From: Candidatus Methylomirabilota bacterium
GTDB lineage: Bacteria > Methylomirabilota > Methylomirabilia > Methylomirabilales > 2-02-FULL-66-22
Direction of reading: 5' to 3'
Length of the DNA stretch: 64,000 nucleotides
Assembly (NCBI GenBank): GCA_016209735.1
Contig: JACQVN010000014.1
Span: 4,633-68,632, forward strand
This document shows, in pieces, positions 5,828-64,000 of the stretch. A model generated the notes under the pieces. The model worked only from the letters and a program-made list of their open reading frames with translations, was not told the origin of the DNA and searched no databases. Numbering within the stretch: the stretch's first letter is position 1; each line of letters starts with the position of its first letter. Position numbers and translations under genes: made by a program.

Positions 5828-7326
5828 GCCATCCCCCCTTTCCGGACCTCGGGCTCTTGCTCCGTTTGCGGGCCGTCAACCGCCGTCGGCTGCGGCGATC
5901 CCTCGGCCCCCGCATTCTCTCCGCCGCCGTCACGGCGGATGTGATACTTCTCGAGCCGGTATTGGAGCGTGCGGTAGCTCAAGCCCAGGAGCTTGGCCGC
6001 CTTGGCCACCACCCCGCCTGACTGCTGCATGGCCTGTAGGATGAAATCCCGCTCGACCTCCTCCAGATTGATCCCCTGCGGGACGAGGAGATAGCGCGTC
6101 CCTCCGGCGGATGCCGCGGGGGGCGCCTGGGGCTCCTCCTGGGGGAGGGTCGAGAATCGGACCTCGATGGGAAGATCCGCGATGTCGATCCTCTTGCCGT
6201 CCGACAGGAGGGCCGCCCGCTGCAGCACCGCCTCCAACTGTCGGACATTGCCGGGCCAGGGGTATCGGGTGAGGAGGCGCATCGCCTCCGTGGTGATGGG
6301 CAGGGGCGGACGCCCCCCTTCCCTGCAGACCCGGGCGACGAAGTACTCCGCCAACTGCGGGATATCGGTGCTCCGCTCCCGCAGGGGCGGGACAGTGATG
6401 GTCACCACGTTCAACCGGTAGTAGAGATCCTCTCGGAACGCCCCCCGGCGGACCTCGGTCTCCAAGTCTTTGTTGGTGGCCGCCAGGATCCGCACGTCCA
6501 CCTTGATGTCCTCGCGGCCGCCCACTCGGCGGATGGTGCGCTCCTGGAGCGCGCGCAGGACCTTCGCTTGCATGTTGACGGACAGCTCGGCCACCTCGTC
6601 CAGAAACAACGTGCTCCGGTCCGCGCCCTCGAAGAGGCCTTGGTGGCGGCCGATCGCCCCGGTGAACGACCCCCTCTCGTGCCCGAACAGCTCACTCTCG
6701 ATGAGGCTGTCGGGAATCGCCGCGCAGCTCACGGCCACGAAGGGTCGGTCCTTGCGTGGGCTATTCCGATGGATGGCGCGCGCGATCAGCTCCTTCCCGG
6801 TGCCGGTCTCCCCGGTGATCAGCACGGTCGAGGTGCTGTTGGACACCTTGTGAATCTTGGCGAACACCTCCTGGAGGCGGTAGTGGCTGCCCACCAGCCC
6901 TTCCACCCGGAACCGCTCTTCCAGTTGCCGCCGCAGGAGGCGATTCTCCTCGATCAGGCGGATCCGCTCGAAAGCCCGGCTGACCGTGTGAAGCAAGTCC
7001 TCGCGGTTGAGTGGCTTCGTGAGGTAATCGAAGGCGCCCTGGCCCAGGGCCCGCTCCGCCGAGTCCATGGACCCGTACGCCGTCATCAGGATGACGAGGG
7101 TGGGAGGGTCGTCCCGGGTAAGCCGCTGGATGAGCGACATCCCATCCTCGCCCGGCATGCGGAGATCGGTGAGCACCAGGTCGAACCGGGTGGCCTCGCT
7201 CAGGGCCACGGCCTCGGCCACGCTTCCCGCCGACTCCACCCGGTAGCCGTCGGCCCCCAGGATCGTGCGGAGGATCTCCCGCTGCGCGGCCTCGTCATCC
7301 ACCACCAGGATCTGCCCCTTGCTCAT
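5824..7326 (-). CDS. sigma-54-dependent response regulator (REC + AAA+ + Fis-type HTH; NtrC family)
   Basis: DDE...D receiver domain, GETGTGKE Walker [16 protein letters not shown] (GAFTGA-type loop), and C-terminal HTH LLGLSYRTLQYRLEKY. Confidence 0.95.
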   Translation of the reverse strand: MSKGQILVVDDEAAQREILRTILGADGYRVESAGSVAEAVALSEATRFDLVLTDLRMPGEDGMSLIQRLTRDDPPTLVILMTAYGSMDSAERALGQGAFDYLTKPLNREDLLHTVSRAFERIRLIEENRLLRRQLEERFRVEGLVGSHYRLQEVFAKIHKVSNSTSTVLITGETGTGKELIARAIHRNSPRKDRPFVAVSCAAIPDSLIESELFGHERGSFTGAIGRHQGLFEGADRSTLFLDEVAELSVNMQAKVLRALQERTIRRVGGREDIKVDVRILAATNKDLETEVRRGAFREDLYYRLNVVTITVPPLRERSTDIPQLAEYFVARVCREGGRPPLPITTEAMRLLTRYPWPGNVRQLEAVLQRAALLSDGKRIDIADLPIEVRFSTLPQEEPQAPPAASAGGTRYLLVPQGINLEEVERDFILQAMQQSGGVVAKAAKLLGLSYRTLQYRLEKYHIRRDGGGENAGAEGSPQPTAVDGPQTEQEPEVRKGGMA

Positions 7327-8936
7327 TCCCCGGGTACTCCTGCCGGAAGGCGCACGCAGGCCACCGTGCCCTTTCCGGGGGTGCTGGTGAGGGAGATCTC
7401 GCCGCCGTGCTCCTCGATGATCTTCCTGGTCAGGGCCAGGCCCAGGCCGATCCCCACCTCCTTGGTCGTGAAGTACGGCTCGAAGATCTTGCCCAGATTC
7501 TCCTCGGAGATCCCAATCCCGGTGTCGCGCAGCTCCACCTCAACCCAGTCGGTGGATGGCAGAGGTCGGGGGTCGGGGATTGACGAATGACGAATGACGA
7601 ATGACGATTGCAAAGCGTCCCCCGGCCCCCCGGCCCCTGGCCCCTGGCCCCCATCCCTCTCGCCCTGTGCGCCGTGCGCCGTGCGCCGTGCGCTATGCCC
7701 CGTGCCCTGTGCGCTGTGCGCTGTGCCCCGTCGCGTCGCCACCGACAGCTCGCCCCCCTCCGGCATGGCCTGCAGGGCGTTCAACGCAAGGTTCACGAAG
7801 CAGGTCTTCAAGTGTACCGGGTCCGCCCACAGTGGGGGGAGACCCTCCTCGGCGGTCCGGCGCAGCCGGACTCGCTGTGCGGCGGCGCGGGGCGCCGCCG
7901 TCTCCATGACCTCGTCCAAGAGGGTCGACAGGTTGCAGGCGCGGCGCTCCAGCTTGAGGGGCTTGCCGTACTTGAGGAAGGTCTCGATCATCTCGTTCAG
8001 CCGCCCGATCTCACCCATCATCATGGACGTGAGGCGCTGGAACTCCTCGCGGGCCTCCGGCTCGCGGGGTGCATGCTGGGCCGCCAGATGGCCGATGGTC
8101 ATGCTGATGGTGCTCAGCGGGTTCCGGACCTCGTGGGCGATGCCCGAGGCGAGATGGGCAATGGCCGATAGCCGCTCCGCCCTGTGCAGACGCGCCTCCA
8201 GGTCCACTTTCTGCCGCAAACCGTCCACCATCTCGTTGAAGCTCCGATTCAGCTCGCCGATCTCGTCCCGCCGGTTCACCGGCAGCCGCTCTTCGAGATG
8301 CCCCTGGGCGACGCGCTGGGCGGCTTCGACGACGCGGAAGATCGGCTTGTGGTAGGTCCAGGCCAGGACGACGGCGCCACCCATTCCGACGCCGAAGACC
8401 AGGACCGTGGCCACCAGTCGCTTCAGGAAGTTGATCCGGGACAGCTCCGCGAAATCGTCCAGGATCATGCTGATCAGAATGTACCCGCTTCGCTGGTTAT
8501 TCACGACGATCGGCACAATCAGGTTGTAGGTCCGCTGCGGGAAGTCGCGGGTGGGAGTCCCCTCCCCCAACCGGGCCGTGATCAGAAGGTCCTTCCGCCT
8601 GGGGTCCACCCGGACTCCGACCCGCCGGGGGTTGGACGAGGCGATCACCTCCTCCTCGTTGCTCACGATCGAGATCTCCCGGACGCCGCGCCGCTGGAGC
8701 CGCTGCACGTAGTCGTTCAGCCGCGCTTCCGTCGTGCGGCCCCGGGAGGTGAGCTGCTCCACACTGATCTGGATGGCCGTGCTCAGATCGGTCGTATGCC
8801 GCTCGACCTGGGAAATGAGCTGGATCTCGGCTCGCCAGTAGAGCAGAAAGAGGGTTGCCAGGATCAGCATCAGCAACCCGAACATCATGGCGAGCATTTT
8901 CCCTCGGAGTCCGAGGGTGAGCATCCGCGGCCACAT
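7323..8936 (-). CDS. sensor histidine kinase (TM-HAMP-HisKA-HATPase_c) with low-complexity insertion
   Basis: H-box SGIAHEVRNPL, N-box FVNLALNALQA, G-boxes DTGIGI and GIGLGL. ATGA overlap with the downstream response regulator. Start taken at ATG 8936 (MWPRMLTLG...). Confidence 0.9.
   Translation of the reverse strand: MWPRMLTLGLRGKMLAMMFGLLMLILATLFLLYWRAEIQLISQVERHTTDLSTAIQISVEQLTSRGRTTEARLNDYVQRLQRRGVREISIVSNEEEVIASSNPRRVGVRVDPRRKDLLITARLGEGTPTRDFPQRTYNLIVPIVVNNQRSGYILISMILDDFAELSRINFLKRLVATVLVFGVGMGGAVVLAWTYHKPIFRVVEAAQRVAQGHLEERLPVNRRDEIGELNRSFNEMVDGLRQKVDLEARLHRAERLSAIAHLASGIAHEVRNPLSTISMTIGHLAAQHAPREPEAREEFQRLTSMMMGEIGRLNEMIETFLKYGKPLKLERRACNLSTLLDEVMETAAPRAAAQRVRLRRTAEEGLPPLWADPVHLKTCFVNLALNALQAMPEGGELSVATRRGTAHSAQGTGHSARRTAHGAQGERDGGQGPGAGGPGDALQSSFVIRHSSIPDPRPLPSTDWVEVELRDTGIGISEENLGKIFEPYFTTKEVGIGLGLALTRKIIEEHGGEISLTSTPGKGTVACVRLPAGVPGE
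7563..7730. repeat. intragenic word-repeat block inside the kinase ATP-binding domain
   Basis: Serial blocks of GGTCGGGG x2, GACGAAT x3-4, CC(C)CTGGCC x3 and GTGCGC(C/T) x7. Translated in frame as GTAHSAQGTGHSARRTAHGAQGERDGGQGPGAGGPGDALQSSFVIRHSSIPDPRP. The same words occur in intergenic elements at 11055 and 38970. Confidence 0.8.
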
Positions 8937-9813: not shown

Positions 9814-9935
9814 ACCAATGACCAAATCCCAATGGGGCGCCACTGTCTTGGTGAATTAGTCAACAAGTCGATTCATCGATTGGGGGTCTGTAGTCGGATT
9901 TCACTTGTCGGTTGTCGGTTTTCACTTTTTCATTG
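9801..9935. repeat. word-repeat elements (CAATGACC block 9801-9835; TTGTCGG block 9897-9935)
   Basis: TAATGACCAATGAACCAATGACCAAATCCCAATGG and GATTTCACTTGTCGGTTGTCGGTTTTCACTTTTTCATTG. Both words recur at other loci (3449, 36262; 32283). Confidence 0.8.
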
Positions 9936-13293: not shown

Positions 13294-13310
13294 GACGCCA
13301 GCACACGGGG

Positions 13311-13406
13311 GAACGCAAAATGCAAAACGGACAATGAAGAACCGGTCAGCGGCCGATGGGGCTCCTGTTGACCGGTTTTCAATTTTTCATTTTCCATTTT
13401 GCATTC
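13311..13406. repeat. word-repeat hairpin, family A
   Basis: GAACGCAAAATGCAAAAC..GAACCGGTCAGCGGCCGATGGGGCTCCTGTTGACCGGTTTTC..CATTTTCCATTTTGCATTCC. Homologous to 318-414. Confidence 0.85.
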
Positions 13407-13455
13407 CGCTGCCTTGGCGTCATGGCAGCGGAAGAATCTCGGATTGGGGGGATTT

Positions 13456-14626: not shown

Positions 14627-14730
14627 CGAACCCGCCGTACTGTCGTACTGCCGAACCCACCTCCCGCCGTACTGCCCTGCTTTCGTGCCCTCGTACCGTC
14701 GTACTGTCGTACCGTCGTACCGCCGTACCC
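14627..14730. repeat. right arm of the four-helix-bundle cassette (GCCGTAC words)
   Basis: CGAACCCGCCGTACTGTCGTACTGCCGAACCC...CCGTCGTACTGTCGTACCGTCGTACCGCCGTACCC. Expanded tandem words complementary to the left arm. Confidence 0.85.
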
Positions 14731-14749
14731 TCACGGCAGGAGCCAGGCC

Positions 14750-17272: not shown

Positions 17273-17382
17273 CCTGGTTTTTGCGCTGAGCGCGCAAAAA
17301 CCAAAACTGAAAGGCATCGGAACCCCTATGGGATTGGTTCGGAGTAAACAACGACCAAGCCGAAAGGCGGCAACCCCGATGG
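17273..17382 (+). repeat. about 110-nt repeat family D, copy 1 (hairpin GGTTTTTGCGC/GCGCAAAAACC plus conserved tail)
   Basis: CCTGGTTTTTGCGCTGAGCGCGCAAAAACCAAAACTGAAAGG...GGGATTGGTTCGGAG...GACCAAGCCGAAAGG..AACCCCGATGG. Aligns along its full length with 25970-26081 and partly with 21704-21795. Confidence 0.8.
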
Positions 17383-21703: not shown

Positions 21704-21795
21704 CCTGGTTTTTGCGCCGCGTGCGCACGAACCAATTCCTTGCACCACCTGGTGGGATAGATCGAACGGCGGTGCACAATGCAGGCAATACCCGG
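21704..21795 (+). repeat. repeat family D, divergent copy 3
   Basis: CCTGGTTTTTGCGCCGCGTGCGCACGAACCAAT...GGTGGGAT..., starting 2 nt after the ACT gene stop. The hairpin is partly degraded. Confidence 0.55.
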
Positions 21796-25969: not shown

Positions 25970-26081
25970 CCTGGTTTTTGCGCTGAGCGCGCAAAAACCA
26001 ATAGTGAAAGACCTGGGGGAACCTCGGTGGGATTGGTCGGGAGCAAGCACCGGCCAACCCGGGAGCAGGTAACCCCGACGG
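25970..26081 (+). repeat. repeat family D, copy 2
   Basis: CCTGGTTTTTGCGCTGAGCGCGCAAAAACCAATAGTGAAAGACC...GGGATTGGTCGGGAG...CCGGCCAACCCGGGAGC..AACCCCGACGG. Confidence 0.8.
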
Positions 26082-27178: not shown

Positions 27179-30100
27179 ATGCACCTCGCAAAAATCGCCC
27201 TTTTTGGTTTTAAATCTTTCGCCGACAAGGTCGAGCTGGAGTTCCGGCCGGGGATCACGGCCATCGTCGGGCCCAACGGCTGCGGCAAAAGCAACGTCTC
27301 GGATGGCATCCGCTGGGCCTTGGGGGAGCAAAGCGCCAAGCTGCTCCGCGGCGATCGGATGGACGACTTCATCTTTGCCGGAAACTCCAGGCGAAAGCCG
27401 CTGGGGTTGGCCGAGGTTGCCCTGACTTTTACCCGGAATAACGGCGCACTTCCCACCGAGTACGAGGAAGTGAACGTCACCCGCCGCCTCTACCGGTCGG
27501 GCGAGAGCGAGTACCTGCTGAACAAGGTGCCCTGCCGTCTGCGCGATATCACCGACATATTCATCGATACCGGCCTGGCTGGGGAGCCGTACGCCCTGAT
27601 CGAGCAGGGAAGCATCGGCGGCGTCGTCAATGCCCGGCCCGTGGAACGCCGCGTCCTGATCGAGGAGGCGGCGGGCATCATGAAGTACAAGAGCAAGAAG
27701 CGGGCGGCGACCGCCAAGCTGGATGCCACAGAGCAGAATCTGCTGCGGATCCGCGACGTGATTGCCGAGGTCGAGCGGCAGCGCAATTCCTTGAAGCGCC
27801 AGGCCAACAAGGCCGAGCGCTACAAGGCGCTCGACCAGCGCTCCACCGAGCTGAAGCTGTACCTGAAGTTCCGCGAGCATGAGACGCTGTGGGCGAATCT
27901 CCAAGCCGCCCTGGCACGGCTCGGCCCCTTGCAGGAACGGCTGCAGAGGGTGCGGGCGGAGCTTGGCGCGGCGGAGGCGGCGCTGGAGGCGGAGCGCCTG
28001 GCGGCGCTCTCCGGCGAGCAGGCGGTGAGCGCGGCCCAGGAGGCCCTGTTCACCCTGCGCTCGCAGATCGACCGCGACGAGGCCGAACTGCGGCGCCTGC
28101 TGCAACACGCGGAAGACACCCGCCGCCGCCAGGCCGAGCACGAGGCGTCCCTGGCCGGTCTGGGGGAGACGACCCGCGCTTTTGTCGGCGACCTCGAGGT
28201 CGCCGGCTGTCGCATCGTCACCCAAGAGGAAGAGGTTGCCCGCCTGGCCTCCCTGCTCGAAGCGGAGGGCAAGACCCTGCGCGAGGTGGAGGCCGCGCTG
28301 ACCGCCGCCGCCGCGGAGCACGGGGAGATGCGCCAGCAGGCGGCTCACCGGGGAGGGCAGCTTGCCCTCAAGCGGAGCGAACTGGCCACCCTGCTGGAGC
28401 GCAGCCGCCAGATGACGGCGCAAGCGGACCGGCTGCGCCAGCGCCACGCGGAGGCCACCACGCAGCGGGCCGGCGCCGAGGCCTCCTCCACGGCCGACGA
28501 GGCGCGGCGGGCCGATGTCCACCAGCGGCTGCTGGACGGTCGCGCGGCGCGGGAGGCGGCGCAGATGGATGCCGCCCGAGCCCGCGAGGCTCGGCGCCAC
28601 CTGGAAGCGGAGATCGCCGGCCTCAGCGCCGACGTGGAGCGGCAGCGCGGCCGCCTCGGCTCCCTGCGCGAGCTGAAGCTGCAATTCGCCGACTTCTCCG
28701 AGGGGAACAAGCTGCTGCTCCAGGCTGGACGGGACCGGCGCCTGCTCGGCGTGGCGGGCCCCCTGGCGGAGATCCTGGAGCCCTCGCCGCGCCACGAGAA
28801 GGCCCTGGAGGCTATCCTGGACAGGTACCTGCAAGGGGTGCGGATGGAGACGTGGGCCGAGGCGCAGGAGGCCCTGGCCCACCTCTTCCGAACCGGCCAG
28901 GGCCGGGCCACGCTCCTCGGGCCGATGCCGCAGGGCGAGGGAACCTGGTCCGAGTCCGCCCGGGCGGATCTGGCCGCCCAAGTCGACCACCTGCCCAAGG
29001 AGCTCCAGGCCCATCTCGAGGGCATGGTCCTCGACCTCATCCGCTCCCCCGAGGGAACGGCCCCCTGGCTCTTGCCCCTCCTGGCGGACGCGATCATCGT
29101 GAGCGACCTGGACGCCGCCCTGGCCATCGCGCGGGAGTTGACCGGCTCCTTCACCCTGGCCACGTTGGCGGGGGAAGTCCTCACCCACCGGGGCGCGCTC
29201 ACCGGCGGGACGCCCGCCCCCCAGGGATTGCTCGGCCAGCGCCGGGAGCTCAAGCAGCTGGAGGAGGCCCTGGTCATCAGCGAGACGGGGCTGGCCGGCC
29301 TGCGCGAGGCGCTGGGTATCGTGACGGACGAGCTGGCCGGCGCCGAGCGGGCGGCGGAGGCCGCCGGGCTGGCCGAGCGCCAAACCGAGCTGGACCTCTT
29401 GTCCATCGAGAAGGACCTGGCCGCCCGCCGGGCCGAGGAGCAGCGCCTGAGCCAGCAGCTCGAGCTGTTCGGGATCGAGTTGCAGACGGTCGAGGCCGAC
29501 CTGGCGCGGATCACCCTGGAGGTGGAAGGGCTGCGCGGGGCCATTGCCGAGGAGGAGGCTGCCGTGGCCGCCCTGGGCCACCGGCTCGGGCTCTTCGAGG
29601 CGGAGGTCGCGCGGCTTCGGGAGCGGCGGGAGACGGTGGGAAGCGGCGTGGGCGAGACGCGCGTTGCCCTGGCCTCCGCCATCGCGCACCGCGACGAGAC
29701 GTCCCGCAACATCGAACGCATGCGCCACGATCTGACGGCCGCCACGGAGCAGATCGCCCGGCTGGAGCAGGAGACCGCCGACTCCGCCTCTCAACTGCAG
29801 GCGACGGCGGCTGCCGAGGGCCGGCTGCGCCAGGAGCTCGGCGCCCTCAAGGAGGATGAGGGAGAGCGACAGGGGACGCTGGTGCGCGCCCAGGAGGCCC
29901 GCGCCGCGACCCAGGCCGGCATTCAGCGGCAGGAGGAGCTCCTGCGCACACAGCGGCAGGAAGAGGCCCGCACCTTCGAGGAGATCGCCGGTCTGGAGAC
30001 CCAGCGGGCGGAGCTGAAGACGGCCCTCACCCACCTGGAGCACGACCTCACCCAGGAGCACGCCGTGGGACTGCCCGAGCTTCGCGACCGGTTCGCCGAG

Positions 30101-32185: not shown

Positions 32186-32353
32186 CAATGCAAAATCGAC
32201 AATGAAAAACTGAAAACCGATCAATGAAGTCCTTGACCGGTTTTGAATTGTCGGTTTTCAATTTTGCATTGGCTCTCGTCGATTGTCGGTTTTAACTTGT
32301 CGGTTGTCGGTTGTCGGTTTTGCATTCTCCACGAGCCATCAGCCATCAACCAC
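32186..32353. repeat. word-repeat element (family A hairpin 32186-32271 plus TTGTCGG and GCCATCA tandem words)
   Basis: CAATGCAAAATCGACAATGAAAAACTGAAAACCGATCAA..TTGACCGGTTTTGAATTGTCGGTTTTCAATTTTGCATTG, then CGATTGTCGGTTTTAACTTGTCGGTTGTCGGTTGTCGGTTTTGCATT, then GCCATCAGCCATCAACC. Confidence 0.85.
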
Positions 32354-33903: not shown

Positions 33904-35007
33904 CCGTAACAGGGGACGCCCATGAAATTATGATATTCTCAGCTCGCGAAACGAGACGCCTGTCGTCACCCCGTAGCGCTCGCCGCGGCACACCGCCCGG
34001 CTGACCGCCGACTGCGTGATTCCCAGCGCGGCTGCCACAGCCGTCCCGGGCAGCCCCAATTCGCGCACGGCCCAGTAGCAGACAAGGCTCCGGGCCTGGG
34101 TGCGCCGGGGTTGCTTACTAGGGACTCGCAGTTCCTCGGGCGTGAGCGCGAAGCGCGCAGCCACGCGCCGGAGGAGCGACTCCAGATCCACCCCGCGTGC
34201 CCGAAGTTGGTCTCGCCGCTCTCGCTGTTCCTCTGCCGCCCGCAGGGCGCTCTCGACAAACTCGCCGTCTCCGAGGATTCGCTCGTCTCCTTTCACCCGC
34301 TCGGTCCGCCGCTGCGCTGTGAGAGCCCGCCAGCCGCCTGCACTCCGGACCAGGCCTCCCCCGGTCAACTCAGAACGGCGGCCGAGCGGGATCCCCTCCG
34401 CCACGAAGGCCCAATACCGCCTTCTGGCGGTCGCGACCCGGCGCCCGAACTGGGCCAGCACTGCGTCCGTGTCCTGCCACGGACTCTCCGCTTTCCCCAT
34501 CAGGCGACTGTGGCCACCATAGGCGTACCGATCCAGGGCCGGCAGGGCGTCCACCAGCTTGGCACGGAGCGGGTTCAGGTGGAGGTAGCGGACAAGTTCG
34601 AGAAAGTACGATTCCTCCTGGCATAGGATGGACTTGTACCGGTTCTGGAAGAGGTAGCCGTGTCGTCGGTGGCGCCGGTTGTAGCTCGCGGCATACCCGG
34701 TGAGGATGCGGCTCATGACAGTCGGCAGAGGGACCGTTCCTGTTCGGAGGAGGAGGTGCACATGGTTCGGTAGGAGGGACCACGCATAGCAGGAGGTTCT
34801 CGTGCTGGTCAGTATATTTCCGAGGCGGGCCACAAAGTCGTCCCTGTCCGCATCGTCGCGGAACACAGGCTGCCGCTCGATGCCGCGGCAAATGACGTGG
34901 TGGAGCGCCCCGGGCGCATCCAGGTGAGCTCGGCGAGGCATAGAAAGTTTATAGCACAACCCTCACGAAGAAGAAACTCATGATTTCATGGCCGTCCCCT
35001 ATTAACC
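33904..35007 (-). mobile_element. RAYT-type (IS200/IS605-like Y1) transposase unit with imperfect terminal inverted repeats
   Basis: Left end CCGTAACAGGGGACGCCCATGAAATTATGA (33904-33933, overlapping the CDS stop). The reverse complement of the right end (34978-35007) is GGTTAATAGGGGACGGCCATGAAATCATGA. About 24 of 30 positions match. Confidence 0.7.
33928..34941 (-). CDS. REP-associated tyrosine transposase (Y1 HUH) with C-terminal DnaA-C-like HTH
   Basis: Start at ATG 34941. HHVICRGIERQPVF, HUH motif LLPNHVHLLL, YLFQNRYKS, catalytic-Tyr context VRYLHLNPLRA, C-terminal LPGTAVAAALGITQSAVSRAV. Confidence 0.85.
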   Translation of the reverse strand: MPRRAHLDAPGALHHVICRGIERQPVFRDDADRDDFVARLGNILTSTRTSCYAWSLLPNHVHLLLRTGTVPLPTVMSRILTGYAASYNRRHRRHGYLFQNRYKSILCQEESYFLELVRYLHLNPLRAKLVDALPALDRYAYGGHSRLMGKAESPWQDTDAVLAQFGRRVATARRRYWAFVAEGIPLGRRSELTGGGLVRSAGGWRALTAQRRTERVKGDERILGDGEFVESALRAAEEQRERRDQLRARGVDLESLLRRVAARFALTPEELRVPSKQPRRTQARSLVCYWAVRELGLPGTAVAAALGITQSAVSRAVCRGERYGVTTGVSFRELRIS

Positions 35008-56747: not shown

Positions 56748-59564
56748 TCAGTCGATGTCCACCTCCAGACGATCGGCCAGACCGAGGTCGCTCACGATCT
56801 GCTCGAGATCTTTCCGTAAAGGCTCGGCAGCAGTACCATCCACAGTCGAAGTCGCATTAAGATTGAGTCGAAGGTCTCCCCCGGACTTCAGCTTCGGAAT
56901 CAGTCGCGTGCCGAGACGATTCCATACCTCGGGAGGAATGCTCCCGCTGACCCGTACGGTCCGTTTGGCCGGAACGACAGGCGGGCGAACACCCTCGCCT
57001 CCTTTGGGGGCCGCTTCCGATTCGTCGGCTCCTGTCAGAATCGTCGTTTCGGGGGCCACAGGTCCTGCGGAGACACCCTCGGCTCCGAGAGGCGCCTTGA
57101 GGGCTCTCGCACGAACCTTGGTGAGGAGGAAAACGTCGCCCTCGAACGTAACCTCATCGTGGGGTACCAACTCACCCCACCACACGCGCGTAAAGCTGCC
57201 GTCCGGTAACTGCCCTGAGGCAAGACCCATCTCGCCCTTCATGACGAACTCCGGAATCTTCCCTCGCAGCACAAGATCTGGATCGACGAGTCGGGTAAGG
57301 GCGCCGTTGAGGAAGCTCTGGCGCAGCCCGGACAGAGGCCAGGCGCCAGCCTCCTTCAAGGCAGGCGGCCAGTTCCGCTCAATGTAGCCCGCACCGACCG
57401 ACTCATTCAGGAGGCCTTGAGACTTCAGTGCCGCGAGAATCCGGCCGGAGAGCGATTCCACCGCACTGGCGTGGCCCGCTCCGAGATCGATCATCTTGAG
57501 CCCACTGGCCGTCTTCTGCTCTGCCAGCACAACGAAGCGATAGGAGGCCCAGACCTCGTCCGTGACATTCTCATCGGCGTCGCGGACCTTGCCGGCCACC
57601 TCCGCCTTCTCGCCCTTCTCGAATTCGCCGCCCAGCACTCCCGTGGCGATCTCGCGCTCGTCCCGCCGCCAGGCCAGCCATGTTTCGACGGCCTCCTGGA
57701 GATCGCGATCGGGCTTCCGTATGAACCATACGAGGGCAGCAGGATACAGTCGTTTGGATTTCCCTCGCTGAACGGTCCAATCGGCAATCCATCCCCGGGC
57801 ACTTTCTGCTCCGCTCCAGGCCGCCTCTGGGTTTGCTACAACAATTGTCAGGCGGGGGGAATCGGCGATAGCCTCGGCATCCTCCGGGAAGAAGACGAGC
57901 GGCGTAGCGGCCTTGGTCTCAAACACTTTGCGGACCGCCGCTTGCGTGGTTTTCTTGATTTCGATTTCGTCCAGGGAAGCCCGGCGGTCGTTCACCACCT
58001 TGGCGAGCTTGGGGTGGAAGCCGAAACGGTAGCCGTCGGTGCCGGCCTTCCGGATATAGAAGCCGGCCTTCTCCAAGGCAATGGCCGCACTGTCAACCGA
58101 GGTGGTGTCTATCTCCGGCTCGCCCGGGGCGAAGCGGAGTTCGGGCAAGTGGGCATACTTGTCCACCATACCGCCGGAAGACTCAAAGAGGATCGTGGCC
58201 CCCACCCCACGATGAATCTCTTTCAACGCCCCCTTGGCGTCCGCATCCAGGGCTTTGGTGCGGGCCAAGTCGCCGGCAATGTCCGAGGTGATCGCCGACT
58301 CCAGCCGTGTTTCCCCGAGCTGTCCGAGGATGGTCGCCCGGAAATCGGCCGCCTCCAGGGGGGCCGACCCCAACGTGATCAGTGGCTCGCGCCGGGCGCG
58401 CTTGTAGCCGTCCCGGTACGCCCACGAGATCCATTGCGCTAGCATCGCCAGGGTGCCTCGAGTTTGCTGGTACTGTTGAAGCGATGTCCACTTCCGCTGA
58501 AAGACGGATACCGTGGAGGGGTGAAAGGGATAGCAGGCCTCGAAGCGGCCCTGGAGAAACTCACGCGCCGTGGTCCCTGCCTGCGCCGCGTTCCGCGACG
58601 CGGCAGGCAGGTCGGTGGCCGCGGAATCAACCGCTGTCCACTGCGGGGGGAGCTGTGCTCGTCGCCCGAAACACCAGTCCGCGTAAGCCTTGCCCACCGC
58701 CTTTCGGGCCTTCTCCGACCCAAGGCCCTCGAACAAGCGTCGCCGGATGACCTCGCTGATTTCAGCCTCGTCGGTGGCGATGAGGTCCTTCGCCACACGC
58801 TTGACGACCTTGGTGATCTTCTCCTGCCATTCCAGGTCATGAGATGACATCTCGACCTGGCTCCGGGGCAGGCTGATCATGGCCGCGCCGTGACTCGTCC
58901 CGGTCATGGCCACCGTCAGGTTCTGGGCAAAGGCATAGAAGCCATCCGCCAGGTCCCGATGCCGATTGATGAAGTTGAGCACCTCGTCGCAGAGGATCAG
59001 GACGCGGTCCCCCGCGGCCGTGAAGAGTCGGCACAGCGTCTCGGTCCCCGGGGCCGCCGTCTTGGCTTTCGGCCCCAGGATCGCCACGCCCGCATCGCCG
59101 GCAAGCTGACGGGCAACGTCAATCCAAGGGGTCTCTCGACCCTCTCGGGGATCCCAGGCATTCCCAACGAAAACCGCTACCCTGGCGGGCGGGATCTCGC
59201 TGAGGCCCGCGTTCTTGAGCATTCTGGCAACGCCCACTTCGTCAGCAACCTTCTTGCCGACGTTGACCAGATGGTAAAGGGCGGTCAGCGTGTGCGTCTT
59301 CCCGCCGCCGAACTGCGTGATCAGGGTGAGGACCGGCGCAGTCCGCTCGGTGAGGCCGGCTAGGCGCCGCAGGACCATTCCCGCATGCTCGCTGAGCGCT
59401 CGTGTGAAATACGTCCGGGAGAAGAACTTTACCGGATCGCTGTAATCCTCCGGCGCCGTCCCCCAGACCACCTGTTCCAGCGCGATGGCAAATTCATCCG
59501 GGTTAAACGATCGCCCTTCGCGAACCTCCGCCCGCGGTGTGGCGACCTTGTACCAAGGGTCCAT
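56748..59564 (-). CDS. DUF499-family P-loop ATPase (BrxC/PglY-like)
   Basis: N-terminus DPWYKVATPRAEVREGRSFNPDEFAIALEQVV...FFSRTYFT, Walker A ITQFGGGKTHT, Walker B VLILCDEVLNF, YPFHPSTVSVFQRKWTSLQQYQQTRGTLAMLA. 938 aa. GAGGAG Shine-Dalgarno. Confidence 0.85.
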   Translation of the reverse strand: MDPWYKVATPRAEVREGRSFNPDEFAIALEQVVWGTAPEDYSDPVKFFSRTYFTRALSEHAGMVLRRLAGLTERTAPVLTLITQFGGGKTHTLTALYHLVNVGKKVADEVGVARMLKNAGLSEIPPARVAVFVGNAWDPREGRETPWIDVARQLAGDAGVAILGPKAKTAAPGTETLCRLFTAAGDRVLILCDEVLNFINRHRDLADGFYAFAQNLTVAMTGTSHGAAMISLPRSQVEMSSHDLEWQEKITKVVKRVAKDLIATDEAEISEVIRRRLFEGLGSEKARKAVGKAYADWCFGRRAQLPPQWTAVDSAATDLPAASRNAAQAGTTAREFLQGRFEACYPFHPSTVSVFQRKWTSLQQYQQTRGTLAMLAQWISWAYRDGYKRARREPLITLGSAPLEAADFRATILGQLGETRLESAITSDIAGDLARTKALDADAKGALKEIHRGVGATILFESSGGMVDKYAHLPELRFAPGEPEIDTTSVDSAAIALEKAGFYIRKAGTDGYRFGFHPKLAKVVNDRRASLDEIEIKKTTQAAVRKVFETKAATPLVFFPEDAEAIADSPRLTIVVANPEAAWSGAESARGWIADWTVQRGKSKRLYPAALVWFIRKPDRDLQEAVETWLAWRRDEREIATGVLGGEFEKGEKAEVAGKVRDADENVTDEVWASYRFVVLAEQKTASGLKMIDLGAGHASAVESLSGRILAALKSQGLLNESVGAGYIERNWPPALKEAGAWPLSGLRQSFLNGALTRLVDPDLVLRGKIPEFVMKGEMGLASGQLPDGSFTRVWWGELVPHDEVTFEGDVFLLTKVRARALKAPLGAEGVSAGPVAPETTILTGADESEAAPKGGEGVRPPVVPAKRTVRVSGSIPPEVWNRLGTRLIPKLKSGGDLRLNLNATSTVDGTAAEPLRKDLEQIVSDLGLADRLEVDID

Positions 59565-59648
59565 TGCCAGCTCCTCAGGCGCGATGTTCGCTGACGATCG
59601 TCAGGCCAGGAAGGAAACGATATTCGTGTCGAGTAGAGCGCTCTCCAC

Positions 59649-60284
59649 TCAAACCCCCGCAGCGTTGGAAGACTCAGTTGCGACCAGGAATGCGCTAAAG
59701 TCGTCGGACTCCCATAGGTCAGCCCCCTTGCCGAATACGTCCTCCAACCGTCGGATGGGCTGAACCGCCTGCTCCCCCGCAAGCTCCTCAAGAGTCTTGT
59801 CCTGCCAGAACTTTTCCGCATCCATGATGTCGAAAGCCTCACCCTCCATGCGAGCCAGCTCGATGTCGCGTATGTTCACGCTAATCAGCCTTCCGGTCAA
59901 GGGATCCTCTTGCGCCTTTCCCGTGATCCGCACGTAGCTCCGCAGATACTCGTATACTCGCTCGGCCAGCGACTCGTCGAAGCGGCACGGGACGGGATCT
60001 CCCACCGGCGGGTGGAGGCGGCATCGCTCGCCAGCGCATCCGAAATCAGCCATGAGAAGGCGGCCCTCCAGCGTCCGCTGATTCGAAACCGGGCTTCGGA
60101 TCAGCCGCACAACCCGCTCACGGACCACCGGCGTCACCGCAGTCCTCCGGCTGAGCCTCTGTGTTCGCCATTCGATCTCAATTGCCCCGATCCCGTAATC
60201 GAGGATTCCCCCAATGTCCCGCAGACTGTGCAGGACACCGACATCGTAGCCCGCCGGCAATCCCTTCCCGTCGTGGGCAATCAC
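59649..60284 (-). CDS. hypothetical 211-aa protein of the island
   Basis: GTG start with AAGGGG upstream. I recognise no catalytic motif. The C-terminal tail TLEELAGEQAVQPIRRLEDVFGKGADLWESDDFSAFL resembles tails I associate with small antitoxin-like proteins. Same strand and short gaps to its neighbours. Confidence 0.55.
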   Translation of the reverse strand: MIAHDGKGLPAGYDVGVLHSLRDIGGILDYGIGAIEIEWRTQRLSRRTAVTPVVRERVVRLIRSPVSNQRTLEGRLLMADFGCAGERCRLHPPVGDPVPCRFDESLAERVYEYLRSYVRITGKAQEDPLTGRLISVNIRDIELARMEGEAFDIMDAEKFWQDKTLEELAGEQAVQPIRRLEDVFGKGADLWESDDFSAFLVATESSNAAGV

Positions 60285-60340
60285 TTCAACCCCTTGGAGG
60301 AAATGCTCTACCGCCTACGAAGGAGCCGTAGGTACACTCA

Positions 60341-60940
60341 CTAATGCGATTTCACTTGAACACTCAAGTCATCTATGAGGTGCTTGAGGCTCTTCTCGAC
60401 TTTTCCCGCTCGGTACAGGTCCATCGCTTCGACAAGCTCCCGCGCAAACTCAATTCCTCCCAGGGTGGAAGCATGGCCCGCACTCGCCACAGCCTTCGAT
60501 AGAATCCGCTTGTAGAGTTCTCTTCCGCACTTCCTTTTTCCCATCTTTGGTGCAATACCGACCACCTGAGTGAAGGATTCCGGATCAGCGAGGTACCACC
60601 GCTCTACATGGGGATCAGGACAGGCAACGACCGTCCGATCTCTGAAGGGAACCTCGATCTCTCCCTCAATCGCTTTCTTTGCCTCATTGAATCTCGTGCA
60701 ATTAGCATCAATCACAACCACAAGCAGGTCTGGAACCGACATGCCCCCGACACCGGTGAGGACCGCTTTCTGGTAGAGCGCAAGCTCTGAGATAGCGCGC
60801 CCGTGCCCCCCACGAGCAGAGCGGGCTCGAAGACTCACCGTCCTCTTCTCCATGCGCGCAAGGCGTTCAACCATTGCCGATAGGAATGCCTCGTGCGCAT
60901 AATCCTCAGCAAACAGGTCTACGGCAAGAGGCTTACTCAT
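60341..60940 (-). CDS. DUF4276-like (Toprim-like) protein, partner of the upstream ATPase
   Basis: AVDLFAEDYAHEAFL (acidic first strand), LLVVVIDANC (DxD-like position), ACPDPHVERWYLAD (E.W motif). 8-nt overlap with the ATPase gene. Confidence 0.55.
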   Translation of the reverse strand: MSKPLAVDLFAEDYAHEAFLSAMVERLARMEKRTVSLRARSARGGHGRAISELALYQKAVLTGVGGMSVPDLLVVVIDANCTRFNEAKKAIEGEIEVPFRDRTVVACPDPHVERWYLADPESFTQVVGIAPKMGKRKCGRELYKRILSKAVASAGHASTLGGIEFARELVEAMDLYRAGKVEKSLKHLIDDLSVQVKSH

Positions 60941-62171
60941 CGAGCATTCCCCGCAAAATCAGGCTTTCAAATAAACCATCCTCTGTGCCTGCTGTCAGCG
61001 CTCGAGCGATTTCCTCGTTCTTGAAAAGTGGTCCAGTCACCTGAAACGGCTTGACCTCGGTTCCATTCAAGCCACGCCGGACATTCAGTAGGGCAATCTC
61101 GCCCTCGCGCGACCGCGCCTGTCGCAAGACGGCATCACAGAAAAGCGGCGAATGTGTGGTGACAATGAGCTGCCTACCCTGCTCGGTGGAGAGAGACGTG
61201 AGGAGCTGAGCGATGAGCTCTAGCCGCCTCGGGTGAACCCCGTTCTCGGGCTCCTCGAAAGCTAAGAGTGCACCGGCCCAAGGGTTAACCGCAATGGCGC
61301 AAAGTGCAAGAACCCGAAGCGTTCCCTCCGACACAATTCTCGATGAGAAATCTATTCCATCCTGGCGAATCTGAATGTCCAGCGTCCCGCGACGCTTGTC
61401 GAGATCTACGGTCAAGTCCTCTACGCTTGGAATGAGCGACCGCAACGTACGCCGGACAGCATCGAACCGTTTGGACCCTTCCCCCGACCGCATTCGGTAC
61501 AGGAATGGAGCGATATCTTCCCCAAGTACACCGATATCTCGTACGTCGGCAGGTGGCCTGGCCGATCGCATCGCAACTCGCGGATCAAGGTAGTAAGTGC
61601 GCCAGCCGGATAGCTCGCCGCGACACCGATCGATCGCTCGATATTCGACGCCGCCAAGTCTCGGGTCCGACAGGGCAGAGTAATTTTGTCCAAGTAATTC
61701 GTACCGCGGCTTCCCGGGATGACTCTTCCGACGAATTCGGAGTTTCTCGTTGACGACCTCGATGGCCGGTGAACCTTTGGGATCACCTTTTTGGCTGAGG
61801 GTTGACAAGTACTCATCACGTACCGATAGACTGCCGGACTGAGGCTGGATCTCGACTGCTATTCGGTAACGCCCAATCTCCCTCGCTATCTGCAGATCCG
61901 CCTCAAGCGAAAAGCGGGCAGAACGTTCTCCAAGAAGGGCCGCAAGCCCACCGGCCGGGAAGGCAAATGCCTCAGCTGGATACCCACGGATTGGCTCGGA
62001 AAGCGCATCCGACAGAGTTCGACTTGTCCCGATTCGCGATAGAGCCTGGACAGCGTCTAGGAGGTTGCTCTTCCCGGCCGCGTTGGGACCAAAGAGGACT
62101 GTCATGCGGGGGAAGGCAACCTCGACGTTGCCGAGGGATTTGAAACCTTCAACCTTCAACCTTCTGAGCAC
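60933..62171 (-). CDS. ABC/SMC-type AAA ATPase (AAA_21/AAA_15-like, OLD/PARIS/AbiL-class)
   Basis: GTG start with GGGGGAGGAGG upstream. LKVEGFKSL..V....R.TVLFGPNAAGKSNLLDA (Walker A), LLAFEEPENGVHP (Walker B/D-loop), LIVTTHSPLF (H-loop). Confidence 0.88.
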   Translation of the reverse strand: MLRRLKVEGFKSLGNVEVAFPRMTVLFGPNAAGKSNLLDAVQALSRIGTSRTLSDALSEPIRGYPAEAFAFPAGGLAALLGERSARFSLEADLQIAREIGRYRIAVEIQPQSGSLSVRDEYLSTLSQKGDPKGSPAIEVVNEKLRIRRKSHPGKPRYELLGQNYSALSDPRLGGVEYRAIDRCRGELSGWRTYYLDPRVAMRSARPPADVRDIGVLGEDIAPFLYRMRSGEGSKRFDAVRRTLRSLIPSVEDLTVDLDKRRGTLDIQIRQDGIDFSSRIVSEGTLRVLALCAIAVNPWAGALLAFEEPENGVHPRRLELIAQLLTSLSTEQGRQLIVTTHSPLFCDAVLRQARSREGEIALLNVRRGLNGTEVKPFQVTGPLFKNEEIARALTAGTEDGLFESLILRGMLDE

Positions 62172-62793
62172 CGGAACCTCCTCCCCCTATTTTCGTGGTA
62201 CTGCCAAGAGCATGGCGTCGAGCAGGCGCTTTTCTTCGCTCTCTTTAGGGTACAACGCGGATAGGGCATTGGCCAAGCGGAGAAAGTCGGCGCTGCGCTG
62301 GATCTCGGCCTCCAGGAGCGCCCGGAGGGCGTTGGTCCGGCCGCCGGCTTGGAGGAGCATGGCGGCGTGGACGTGATCCAGCGTCGTCGCCCCTGCCTGC
62401 GCCGCGTGTCGCGCCGCGGCAGGCAGGTCCCGCCGAGTCCTCAAGGCCTTGTCCGAGATCGCAGCCCCCCTTCGGGCACGGCCGCGAACCCGGACCGGCT
62501 GCGGTTCCGTTTCCATCCTCGGAAATAGTGTCAACTGCGCCGCACTCTTGGGACTCTGTTCCAATTGGTCCGCGACGACCTCCGCCCCATCCTCGCCGAA
62601 GAGCTGCTTGGCTCGCTGCGAAACCGGCAGCAGGCGCACGATGCCCTTTTCGGTCTCGATGATCCGGCTTTCCCAATCCGGCAGATGGATGCCGAGCGGC
62701 TGGGCGAATCGACGCGCGACATCAAAGGCGAGACTGAAACCCTTGGCCCTCTTTCGCGACGTAGCCTCCTCACTGTCGTCGCCCATCTCGTCC

Positions 62794-62838
62794 CCCTCAC
62801 CCTCCCCCTCTCCCAGTGGGAGAGGGCCGGGGTGAGGG
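62794..62838. repeat. 45-nt palindromic element inserted in frame in the methylase gene
   Basis: CCCTCACCCTCCCCCTCTCCCA-G-TGGGAGAGGGCCGGGGTGAGGG, 22-nt arms with a 4-nt internal mismatch. Translated as PHPGPLPLGEGEGEG. Confidence 0.85.
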
Positions 62839-63227
62839 TCGCCGTTGTCGCCATTCGTGCTCTCGAGTGTCCAAAGGAACAAGGCGGTCAACCGCGCGTC
62901 TTCTTCCAGTGCCCCAGCAGCGCCATTGCGTGCCTTGGCCTCGGCCGTGCCCAGGACCTGCTCTAGCGCCATACGACCGACGACTTCCCAGACATAGGCC
63001 AGATACCCTCGCTTATGGGGCTCCTTCGCTTCGGGATCGCCGCCCAGCGGAATTCCCGCTCCTCGGCGTCCACAACCTTGGCGTACCGGCTGTAAATCTC
63101 CAGCGCCGGACGGATGCAGGCAAACACCAGGTCCGCCCCTCGGACGCCTTCAGATTGGAGCCGCTCCATCCAGTCGCCGACACGGATGGGCAGCTCCCGA
63201 AAGACTTCCACCCAGTCACCCACTCCT

Positions 63228-63276
63228 CCCTCACCCTCGGTCCCTCTCCCACTGGGAGAGGGACCGAGGGTGAGGG
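63228..63276. repeat. 49-nt perfect palindromic element at the first frame break of the methylase gene
   Basis: CCCTCACCCTCGGTCCCTCTCCCA-C-TGGGAGAGGGACCGAGGGTGAGGG, perfect 24-nt arms. Same family as 62794-62838. Confidence 0.9.
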
Positions 63277-64000
63277 GCGGGGGCGGCAGACCAGATGGAT
63301 ACTCGTCGCGAGCGCGGCTGAATCGCGAGCCCGTAGCCGGGTCCCGCTCTCGGTGGCAATCGGCCACGAACCGGTGATTATCCAGCCTCCTCGGATCATC
63401 CCCGAGAGCAGCGCTTCCCATCCCTCCGTTGTCGTGTGGGCAAAGACGACGGAGCCTATTCCTTCATCGCGCAGGACCCGTCGGCCCTCCGCAAATGCCG
63501 CGGCCATTGTTTCTTCAAAGAAACGGCGGTCCTTTGGAGATCCATTGAAATTCTTGGTTTCATCCTGAACGGCTTCGCGCGCCTTCGGAGTCAGATCGTT
63601 TTGTGCGTCGTATGGATCCCTGAGAAGAGGATGGCCTGGCAACACGCGCTTCAACCAGACGAAGAAAAAGTCCGAGAGGTCGGAATACGGGATCGCATCG
63701 TAGTAGGGAGGATCTGTGAACCAGATTCCTGCCGCCTCGTCAGGCAAGGGAGACTCACGGGCATCAGCCAATTGCAGTTGGCCAGACCTACCCTTCGGCA
63801 GCACATCGATCACCCTTGCCATCGTGCCGAGGGTAACAGAATAGTCTCCTGCCTGGTCGCCGAAGCGCGAGGGTTCGGCAAAATCCCACAGGATCGGAAG
63901 TGCTTGACGAGTAAAGAGGTGCCGAACCTGGGTCTTGGTGTTCTCCCACTGGCAAAGGGCATTGCCAATGTCCGCGAACCGGCTCAAGGCCAGGCCTGCG

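Follow-up and report, generated by a model that had tools for sequence, protein, structure and literature searches.

Two palindromes within hmaB

The window analyzed here is a 64,000-nucleotide stretch of a metagenome-assembled genome (MAG) of Candidatus Methylomirabilota, or candidate division NC10 (assembly GCA_016209735.1, contig JACQVN010000014.1, positions 4,633 to 68,632). At one end of it lies hmaB, the DNA methylase gene of a probable Hma (helicase-methylase-ATPase) defense system, and inside hmaB lie two palindromes, here called copy 1 and copy 2 (Table 1). Both are probably units of the BoxC/PIT/TMECO repeat family that hmaB acquired secondarily, copy 1 being tolerated and copy 2 standing at a change of reading frame.

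The window holds the C-terminal ~590 codons of hmaB, with the N terminus and the DUF1156 domain proper beyond its end. The position of the HmaA helicase would also fall past that end; in homologous loci (L001, L002 and L004) an SNF2 helicase is found upstream. The ATPase gene hmaC is apparently full length. When its frame changes are repaired, HmaB has homologues that are 62-80% identical over 100% of the length. The public annotation of the MAG calls just 62187-62972, as a 261-residue hypothetical protein (MBI4536779.1, candidate division NC10 bacterium), and proteins of the window match accessions MBI4536774-79 exactly. The G+C content of the defense island is 0.58-0.63, compared with 0.64-0.74 across the remaining window, which fits a horizontal origin.

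The initial annotation placed two related palindromes in the methylase gene, and both were found at the positions it gave, 389 nt apart. Each consists of four 9-nt blocks, CCCTCACCC, CCCTCTCCC, GGGAGAGGG and GGGTGAGGG, and folds as a whole into one hairpin with a 1-nt loop. The 24-nt arms of copy 2 are 100% complementary, as that annotation had said. The arms of copy 1 are 22 nt long and complementary at 19 of 22 positions; we count three mismatches where four had been reported, and all three fall in the 3-nt spacer (TCC versus CCG), leaving all four blocks perfect. If three mismatches were randomly placed among 22 arm positions, such confinement would occur once in 1540 cases, so the pattern is not one of random decay. 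The proposal that perfect arms mark a recent copy and mismatched arms an old one fails for the same reason, and because non-complementary spacers are the norm in this family (76 of 122 copies). The view that the two are members of one family is right insofar as the repeats are related, but they belong to different subfamilies, copy 1 having 3-nt spacers and copy 2 5-nt TCGGT/ACCGA spacers.

The similarity of the two is not a chance effect of composition. The core CTCTCCCANTGGGAGAG, common to both, is found twice in the window against an expectation of 0.01, and GGGTGAGGG six times against 1.46, with four of the six inside the palindromes. As single-stranded DNA, copy 1 folds with -20.3 kcal/mol (z = -4.4 against shuffled controls) and copy 2 with -31.8 kcal/mol (z = -9.2). 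Copy 1 is preceded by CGTCC before CCCTCACCC and followed by TCGCC after GGGTGAGGG, whereas the corresponding flanks of copy 2 are CTCCT and GCGGG; no direct repeat or target-site duplication is seen flanking either copy.

Table 1. Features discussed in the text (window coordinates unless a contig is named)
Feature	Position	Strand	Description	Sequence or evidence
Copy 1	62794-62838		45-nt four-block palindrome inside hmaB (minus-strand gene)	CCCTCACCC-TCC-CCCTCTCCC-AGT-GGGAGAGGG-CCG-GGGTGAGGG
Copy 2	63228-63276		49-nt four-block palindrome inside hmaB	CCCTCACCC-TCGGT-CCCTCTCCC-ACT-GGGAGAGGG-ACCGA-GGGTGAGGG
hmaB	62187-64000	-	DUF1156-family DNA methylase, Hma system	PADLOC HmaB E = 1.2e-54
hmaC	56748-59564	-	DUF499 ATPase, 938 aa	PADLOC HmaC E = 5.1e-83; Pfam DUF499
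AAA_21 ATPase	60933-62171		Between hmaB and hmaC	PADLOC HEC-01A-like
DUF4276 protein	60341-60940		Between hmaB and hmaC	
ORF of 211 aa	59649-60284		Between hmaB and hmaC, no family named	
36-nt palindrome	62392-62427		In hmaB; exact 12-codon in-frame insert DLPAAARHAAQAG	CCTGCCTGC-N18-GCAGGCAGG
36-nt palindrome, second copy	58576-58611		In hmaC; exact 12-codon in-frame insert DLPAASRNAAQAG	
36-nt palindrome, third copy	L001 4110-4145		In hmaA of the contig of the closest homologue; exact 12-codon in-frame insert	
RAYT-like ORF	33928-34959		Y1 (IS200-like) domain fused to C-terminal DnaA_C-like helix-turn-helix	Y1_Tnp E = 3e-8
~90-nt composite	L128, L151, L153, L159, L172, L181, L193, L218, L229, L231		Repeat of metagenome contigs	CACCCTTCTCCC-GGGG-GGAGAAGGG-CTTTGCAT-CCCTCTCCC-TCC-GGGAGAGGG-ACCGA-GGGTGAGGG-AAATATGTCGGAATCGTTAT

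Relation to the BoxC/PIT/TMECO family

The initial annotation treated the palindromes as an unnamed local family, but they correspond to one already described. BoxC of Escherichia coli has been re-described as PIT (potential intrastrand triplex), as the TMECO triplex motif and as the HPG1/HPG2 G-quadruplex-hairpin motif (PMC4666352, PMC5100583, PMC2869309). These three papers, among them Kaplan et al. 2016 (PMC5100583), were reached by searching full texts for the blocks; Holder et al. 2015 (PMC4666352) credit PIT to Maher et al. 2000 and also cite the first account of BoxC. The TMECO pattern is CCCTCNCCC-N3-6-GGGNGAGGG-N3-GGGNGAGGG, and 3610 copies were counted in 262 proteobacterial genomes, with the largest number, 143, in Enterobacter asburiae LF7a (PMC4666352). 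K-12 has 23 copies, all of them intergenic and unassociated with mobile elements; they show neither promoter nor terminator activity and go together with local instability of the sequence (PMC4666352). Repeats of Enterobacter sp. 638 read CCCTCTCCCXX(X)GGGAGAGGG (PMC2869309).

Copy 1 fits the TMECO pattern on both strands, reading CCCTCTCCC-AGT-GGGAGAGGG-CCG-GGGTGAGGG on one and having GGA as the spacer on the reverse. Copy 2 contains all three pattern blocks, but its second loop is 5 nt (ACCGA), so that it fails the strict N3 and is a subfamily variant. The blocks are the same as in E. coli and stand in the same order, and 62806-62839 is identical to TMECO no. 1 of K-12 at 32 of 34 positions. 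A blastn search with 62790-62842 found 39357 chromosomal places and 61 on plasmids, spread over 4826 of 5426 complete E. coli genomes (median eight sites); the ten matches listed overlap no annotated feature. The family as known is multi-copy and dispersed; like the window copies, it has no associated transposase and can form a hairpin, G-quadruplex or triplex. There are differences: in E. coli the reported copies are confined to intergenic DNA and mostly have three blocks, whereas the window copies are intragenic and four-block, copy 2 has 5-nt instead of 3-nt spacers, and the host is an NC10 bacterium and not a proteobacterium.

The four-block pattern was scanned in one genome per species, and the copies listed give a lower bound. 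Among the matches listed, copies occur in Chloroflexota, Planctomycetota, Nitrospirota, Verrucomicrobiota, Omnitrophica, Armatimonadota, cyanobacteria and Pseudomonadota, and by group or genus in Deltaproteobacteria, Pseudomonas, Enterobacter and Phytobacter. Because it spans many phyla, this is not a lineage-specific family of repetitive extragenic palindromic (REP) elements. Across 122 members there is a weak flank bias, T-C-N before the element and N-G-A after it, which supports a slightly longer inserted unit. No Rfam family corresponds to the element, and the matches obtained were generic hairpin ones to microRNA models, all far below the gathering scores.

Distribution among HmaB homologues

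The frames and sites were compared with 60 HmaB homologues. At the site of copy 2, all 60 aligned homologues read CRPR, five to six variable residues and GDW, without an element. Copy 1 lies in a hypervariable acidic linker, where the element is missing in 58 of the 60. The closest homologue, P0001 (locus L001), is 80% identical overall and 85.5% outside the linker, and its DNA has no trace of an element at either site. In a neighbor-joining tree calculated with the linker left out, the window HmaB is sister to the element-free P0001 and P0002, and the element-bearing homologues fall into at least four separate clades, although the tree is shallow and star-like.

Several homologues carry related material. 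Peptides resembling that of copy 1 occur in the linker of P0036, P0037 and P0086, where the DNA proves to be the same palindrome in half-decayed form; in P0037 and P0086 it stands at the linker offset of the window and in the same frame. P0120 carries a copy in another frame, and a clade with P0114, P0010 and P0034 has nine element-derived residues inserted at a third site in HmaB. A single ancestral linker insertion common to P0037, P0086 and the window gene was considered; it is the less likely reading, since the tree puts both apart from the window gene, but it keeps some weight because that tree is shallow.

Since the closest homologues lack both elements and the bearers are scattered over the tree, the simplest reading of these alignments is that copy 1 and copy 2 would be secondary acquisitions by hmaB at length-variable sites. 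This sustains the suggestion of the initial annotation that the elements are related and entered the gene secondarily. It had added that orthologues carrying the same peptide at the same position would argue for native sequence; P0037 and P0086 do match the linker position, but they belong to a different clade, and the nearest relatives of the window gene lack the peptide.

Reading frames of hmaB

Three-frame translation compared with the homologues shows that hmaB is read in three frames: frame 1 from 63999 to 63277, frame 0 from 63227 to ~63056 and frame 2 from ~63055 to 62187. Copy 1 was described as translated in frame inside an acidic linker, and indeed it is open in the hmaB frame and is read on the minus strand as PHPGPLPLGEGEGEG. 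Copy 2 lies between the conserved HLVCRPR and GDW motifs, and the frame passes from 1 to 0 across the palindrome, a net shift of +2, in agreement with the earlier placing of the frame change there. Neither the upstream nor the downstream frame is stopped within copy 2, so that two ORFs (open reading frames) overlap across it; if the assembly is right, out-of-frame translation after copy 2 halts at 63013.

The second frameshift, at ~63055 (63050-63060, minus strand), is a 1-nt deletion that turns GAA ATT into GAATT and changes frame 0 to frame 2. It falls in AEEREIPLGG, a stretch for the most part conserved in the homologues; no palindrome is involved, and the initial annotation did not mention this change. 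The repaired reading across the junction matches P0001 exactly and most other homologues closely. In addition, ACIGPALE has nearby become ACIRPALE in the window hmaB, arginine taking the place of a glycine found in all of the 60 homologues. Given the frame change at copy 2, the independent 1-nt deletion ~170 nt downstream and the G-to-R change at an invariant glycine, hmaB is most likely a recently decayed pseudogene, provided that the MAG consensus is right.

Whether this decay can be traced to the element is another matter. The initial annotation proposed that the element inactivated a defense methylase, and copy 2 does coincide with a frameshift; because the second frameshift and the changed glycine are present too, however, copy 2 cannot alone be blamed and may be either a cause of the decay or a passenger. 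Nor is copy 2 frame-breaking simply because 49 is not a multiple of three, since excision of all 49 nt leaves stop codons, and cores of 47-50 nt and 35-nt units are in frame elsewhere. Excision of one 35-nt three-block half of copy 2 restores HLVCRPR-TEGEGGV-GDWVEVF and excision of the other half HLVCRPR-PSPSVGV-GDWVEVF, both colinear with homologues (e.g., HLVCRPR-TEDKV-GDW).

The copy 2 subfamily

The half-site of copy 2, the 23-mer GGGAGAGGGACCGAGGGTGAGGG, is found in at least 120 metagenome contigs, where the unit is nearly always a 35-nt three-block form, CCCTCTCCC-N3-GGGAGAGGG-ACCGA-GGGTGAGGG; the fourth block, CCCTCACCCTCGGT, occurs in 0 of 129 copies of this ACCGA subfamily. It was considered whether ACCGA had been borrowed from native Thr-Glu codons, as the closest homologues read CRPR-TEDK, but the presence of the half-site in so many unrelated contigs makes ACCGA a genuine subfamily signature and not borrowed gene sequence. 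Frame 0 reads copy 2 as PSPSGRGTEGEG, a peptide also made by in-frame subfamily copies in long ORFs elsewhere, one of which may be a leucyl-tRNA synthetase. The ACCGA three-block unit also forms the 3' part of a ~90-nt repeat that is near-identical between metagenome contigs (Table 1), and this repeat suggests composite elements built of BoxC-like hairpins.

How copy 2 acquired its length can be approached by arithmetic. Insertion of 35 nt alone fits the numbers, but it needs the 14-nt outer arm to have pre-existed in the gene and was set aside as not proven. A 49-nt insertion with loss of 8 or 11 native bases matches equally well. An imperfect palindrome can be made perfect by hairpin-templated copying, as in the Ripley model of quasipalindrome template-switch mutagenesis, and given the 0 of 129 count, the perfect four-block form of copy 2 would fit better with such local symmetrization than with a fresh standard insertion. 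A template switch would explain the passage from a three-block unit to a longer perfect palindrome together with the length change and the frameshift; it is a mutational mechanism rather than an element family, and is invoked for copy 2 only.

In-frame copies in other genomes

Residence within genes is not confined to hmaB. We sampled 123 four-block copies from the species genomes and took a frame as open when it extended for at least 60 codons on each side; 40 of the 123 copies lie in such frames. In a Pfam scan, 24 of the 40 frames have domains at E <= 1e-5, the domain match often spanning the element. The hosts so supported include aconitase, zinc alcohol dehydrogenase, PurL, peptidase S15, RNase D, ThyX, HsdM, HsdR and TatD, and further CofD, GlnE, SHMT-GcvT, FtsJ, GATase, an FAD oxidase, glycosyltransferases and a restriction helicase. 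Fifteen of the in-frame copies are from Chloroflexota, with others from Planctomycetota, Nitrospirota, Armatimonadota and one Thiotrichaceae; none of these in-frame copies comes from a Pseudomonas or Enterobacter isolate. A search of the searchable library found no description of intragenic BoxC or its encoded peptides.

Two of the three frames on each strand of the element are open, and the third is stopped by GGG-TGA-GGG. The in-frame copies have cores of 43-50 nt, and therefore the inserted unit must exceed the conserved core or replace native bases. Core length modulo 3 was tried as a predictor of the effect on frame and rejected, as cores of 47, 49 and 50 nt and the 35-nt three-block units occur in frame in real genes.

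Restriction and defense genes are also found with in-frame copies, among them a restriction helicase with two copies, HsdM and HsdR, in a Thiotrichaceae MAG (L096) and two Nitrospirota MAGs (L058, L114). In an Anaerolineales MAG (L014, ~6300-6500), an aconitase ORF has five tandem in-frame SP(A/T)GRGEGVRG repeats beside a full BoxC-type palindrome, which shows that half-units can amplify in tandem inside coding sequence.

The initial annotation likened the behavior to that of Rickettsia palindromic elements (RPEs). As a description of behavior the comparison is apt, at least 24 of the 123 copies being in frame in Pfam-supported genes: both are palindromic repeats translated in frame inside protein genes, apparently at permissive sites. 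It does not extend to membership. RPEs are ~105-146 bp long and belong to one genus (Ogata et al. 2000, as cited in PMC3184786), and their sequence is unrelated, whereas the window elements are 45-49 nt and near-identical across phyla. In-frame residence is well known for RPE, RUP, BOX and some miniature inverted-repeat transposable elements, or MITEs (PMC3184786). MITEs such as Correia/NEMIS, Nezha, RUP and BOX resemble the present units in being non-autonomous and able to extend or interrupt frames, but they are 100-400 bp long and derived from insertion sequences, with terminal inverted repeats and target-site duplications (PMC3184786). None of these traits is seen in the window elements, each of which is one hairpin and not a pair of terminal repeats around a core.

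Proposed origin and alternative explanations

We consider it likely that hmaB acquired BoxC-family units secondarily. The family consists of G-rich units of 9-nt blocks (CCCTCNCCC, GGGAGAGGG, GGGTGAGGG) able to form a hairpin, triplex or G-quadruplex, non-autonomous and dispersed over many bacterial phyla. Two members of different subfamilies would have entered hmaB, each where the length of HmaB varies. Copy 1, in the disordered acidic linker, adds 15 Pro/Gly/Glu-rich residues and is a tolerated passenger; copy 2, if the assembly is right, adds a net length of 2 mod 3 in the variable segment of 5-6 residues between HLVCRPR and GDW. There, a standard three-block ACCGA unit may have arrived first, possibly in frame, and may then have been symmetrized by hairpin-templated copying of the quasipalindrome template-switch type, a step that could itself have made the frameshift. 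Selection would filter copies in genes for loops and linkers and for reading in the two frames of each strand that GGG-TGA-GGG does not stop. The spread of the units could, very tentatively, be put down to mobilization in trans by a sequence-specific enzyme that leaves no target-site duplication.

Sequence obtained independently bears on one of the two copies. A Logan contig of run SRR12113390 equals 59301-62835 of the window with 0 mismatches and ends inside copy 1, so that copy 1 is verified by an independent assembly. Its end there means that the repeat breaks assembly graphs in this sample, which suggests that other near-identical copies are present in it. Exact look-ups of HmaC and of the 261-aa and 152-aa ORFs gave no independent sequence over 62836-64000, which contains copy 2 and both frameshifts, the ATPase alone having led to a Logan contig; nor did a search for homologues of the frame-1 product reveal an identical fragment.

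Several points weigh against the proposed origin. Copy 2 and both frameshifts rest on one short-read MAG assembly, and the symmetrization step rests on the 0 of 129 count and not on an observed event. No near-identical empty-site allele was found; because the nearest relative is only 80% identical, we infer insertion from the phylogenetic distribution rather than observe it. The copies of P0037 and P0086 at the same offset could reflect an old shared insertion lost many times. No further BoxC-type copies exist in the 64-kb window beyond the two in hmaB, and no transposase or other mobilizing function for the family was identified in the window or in the searched literature.

The first of these points gives the strongest alternative, in which short-read assembly or consensus in the MAG would have created the frame change at copy 2 and possibly the other one as well, the gene being intact with an in-frame element. 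It agrees with the exact break of the Logan assembly at copy 1 and the single coverage of 62836-64000, and a 1-nt error in the C-run just upstream of copy 2 (63277-63288) would suffice, as frame 0 yields the PSPSGRGTEGEG known from in-frame subfamily copies; the perfect four-block form is otherwise 0 of 129 in the subfamily. Yet both flanks are colinear with the homologues, and by direct reasoning the central base breaks the symmetry, so that there is no self-ambiguity at k >= 31. The second frameshift lies in ordinary sequence, and the replacement of an invariant glycine fits real decay. We regard an artifact as unlikely, though it deserves weight. That the palindromy is incidental to native low-complexity Gly/Glu/Pro coding sequence is much less plausible and is largely refuted. 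The linker is acidic and glycine-rich in all homologues and similar peptides occur in P0036, P0037 and P0086, but all four blocks are perfect and match an intergenic repeat of E. coli, the core is expected only 0.01 times in the window, the elements are missing from the nearest relatives, and the homologue versions prove to be half-decayed palindrome copies in DNA.

Cognate REPs typically flank genes for REP-associated tyrosine transposases (RAYTs), and the E. coli RAYT is tied to classical REPs. The initial annotation suggested an association with a RAYT at 33.9 kb, and an ORF with a Y1_Tnp domain does lie there (Table 1). REP/REPIN elements and the window copies are alike as short GC-rich palindromes in many copies without target-site duplication, and Y1 HUH transposases act on hairpins without making one. 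The ORF also matches NCBIfam REP_Tyr_transpos, but scores 63 where the cut-off is 80. Contrary to the suggested association, no BoxC-type palindrome flanks it, and no obvious hairpin of any family lies within 400 nt on either side; the nearest GGGTGAGGG, at 30024, is not palindromic. The head tetranucleotide of REPs is GTAG or CGTC (PMC3733652), and neither is present at the palindrome ends of copies 1 and 2. In E. coli, BoxC/TMECO is unassociated with mobile elements (PMC4666352). Moreover, the family is not species-specific and is partly intragenic. Mobilization of the copies as REP/REPIN elements by this RAYT-like protein is thus improbable. Least credible of all is that the hairpin functions in the mRNA or gene, whether as a programmed frameshift, as an attenuator or by deliberately dividing HmaB into two polypeptides. 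The stability of copy 2 (-31.8 kcal/mol), its being open in the upstream and downstream frames with overlapping ORFs, and a sub-threshold Rfam match to a frameshift element (15 bits, E = 5) could be read in that sense. There is, however, no slippery site, a second frameshift follows downstream, the shifts of +2 and -1 do not cancel, the arrangement is seen in 0 of 60 homologues, and the Rfam matches are generic and far below gathering scores.

Other repeats and genes of the window

A second family of palindromes, unrelated to the BoxC type, is also present in the Hma genes. Its 36-nt copies (Table 1), of which none is expected by chance in the window, encode the peptide (D/G)LPAA..AAQAG, and by direct reading of the sequence each seems to interrupt a GAG or GGN codon ahead of its third base. 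The hmaB insert is missing in 39 of the 40 homologues shown, the exception being P0007 with a shorter version at the same site, and the hmaC insert is missing in the HmaC of L002 and L004. This family is a cleaner example of in-frame colonization than the BoxC-type copies, and its inserts make the Hma operon a repeated landing place for miniature palindromes.

The interval between hmaB and hmaC (59649-62171) holds three genes, which together look like a second defense module nested in the Hma operon. Other cargo is found at the equivalent place in homologous loci, namely an OLD-like nuclease, DUF8426 and Fic.

Elsewhere in the window, A/T-rich intergenic repeats of TTTTGCATTTTCCATTTTGCATTC- and GTCGGTTTTCA-type units lie at 368-414, 9886-9934, 13310-13407 and 32200-32326, partly arranged as long inverted repeats; their composition stands out against a genomic G+C of 67%. 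A hairpin repeat, CCTGGTTTTTGCGC..GCGCAAAAACCA, is found three times (17273-17320, 21704-21751 and 25970-26017), and its copies look like shared terminator-like elements. Tandem arrays at 7616-7755 and 14631-14734 are of a 7-nt CCGTGCG type, with 14-nt periodicity, and an 8-nt CCGTACTG type.

Implications

The copies in hmaB are new members of a long-known repeat family, and neither a new family nor RAYT-linked REPs. BoxC/PIT/TM has been without an agreed function or spreading mechanism since the 1990s, and nearly all work on it has concerned E. coli, whose copies are strictly intergenic. The present analysis extends near-identical units to an NC10 bacterium and to many other phyla, with about a fifth of a cross-phylum sample in frame in real genes. 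Intragenic copies allow filled and empty sites to be compared at codon resolution, making the inserted unit and its target definable, and such comparisons are the missing step towards finding the mobilizing activity. The repeats add short protein loops, split or kill genes, break metagenome assemblies and seed spurious hypothetical proteins, which matters for annotation and for reading the decay of defense islands.

A broader possibility, which we put forward only tentatively, is that BoxC/TM units are a pan-bacterial, currently mobile miniature class that routinely enters genes outside the enterobacteria, with Hma and restriction-modification genes as recurrent targets; the copies would persist as in-frame Pro/Gly/Glu-rich loops and be driven by widely shared sequence-specific machinery. 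If this is true, the NC10 hmaB illustrates the two fates of such copies, one tolerated in frame and one killing the gene, beside a 36-nt, 12-codon inserter of all three Hma genes. Taken by itself, the hmaB locus yields a modest result, namely members of a known repeat family within a gene that is probably decaying. The wider pattern is more interesting: near-identity between E. coli and NC10, ~20% in-frame intragenic copies in other phyla, and a 36-nt element in three Hma genes.

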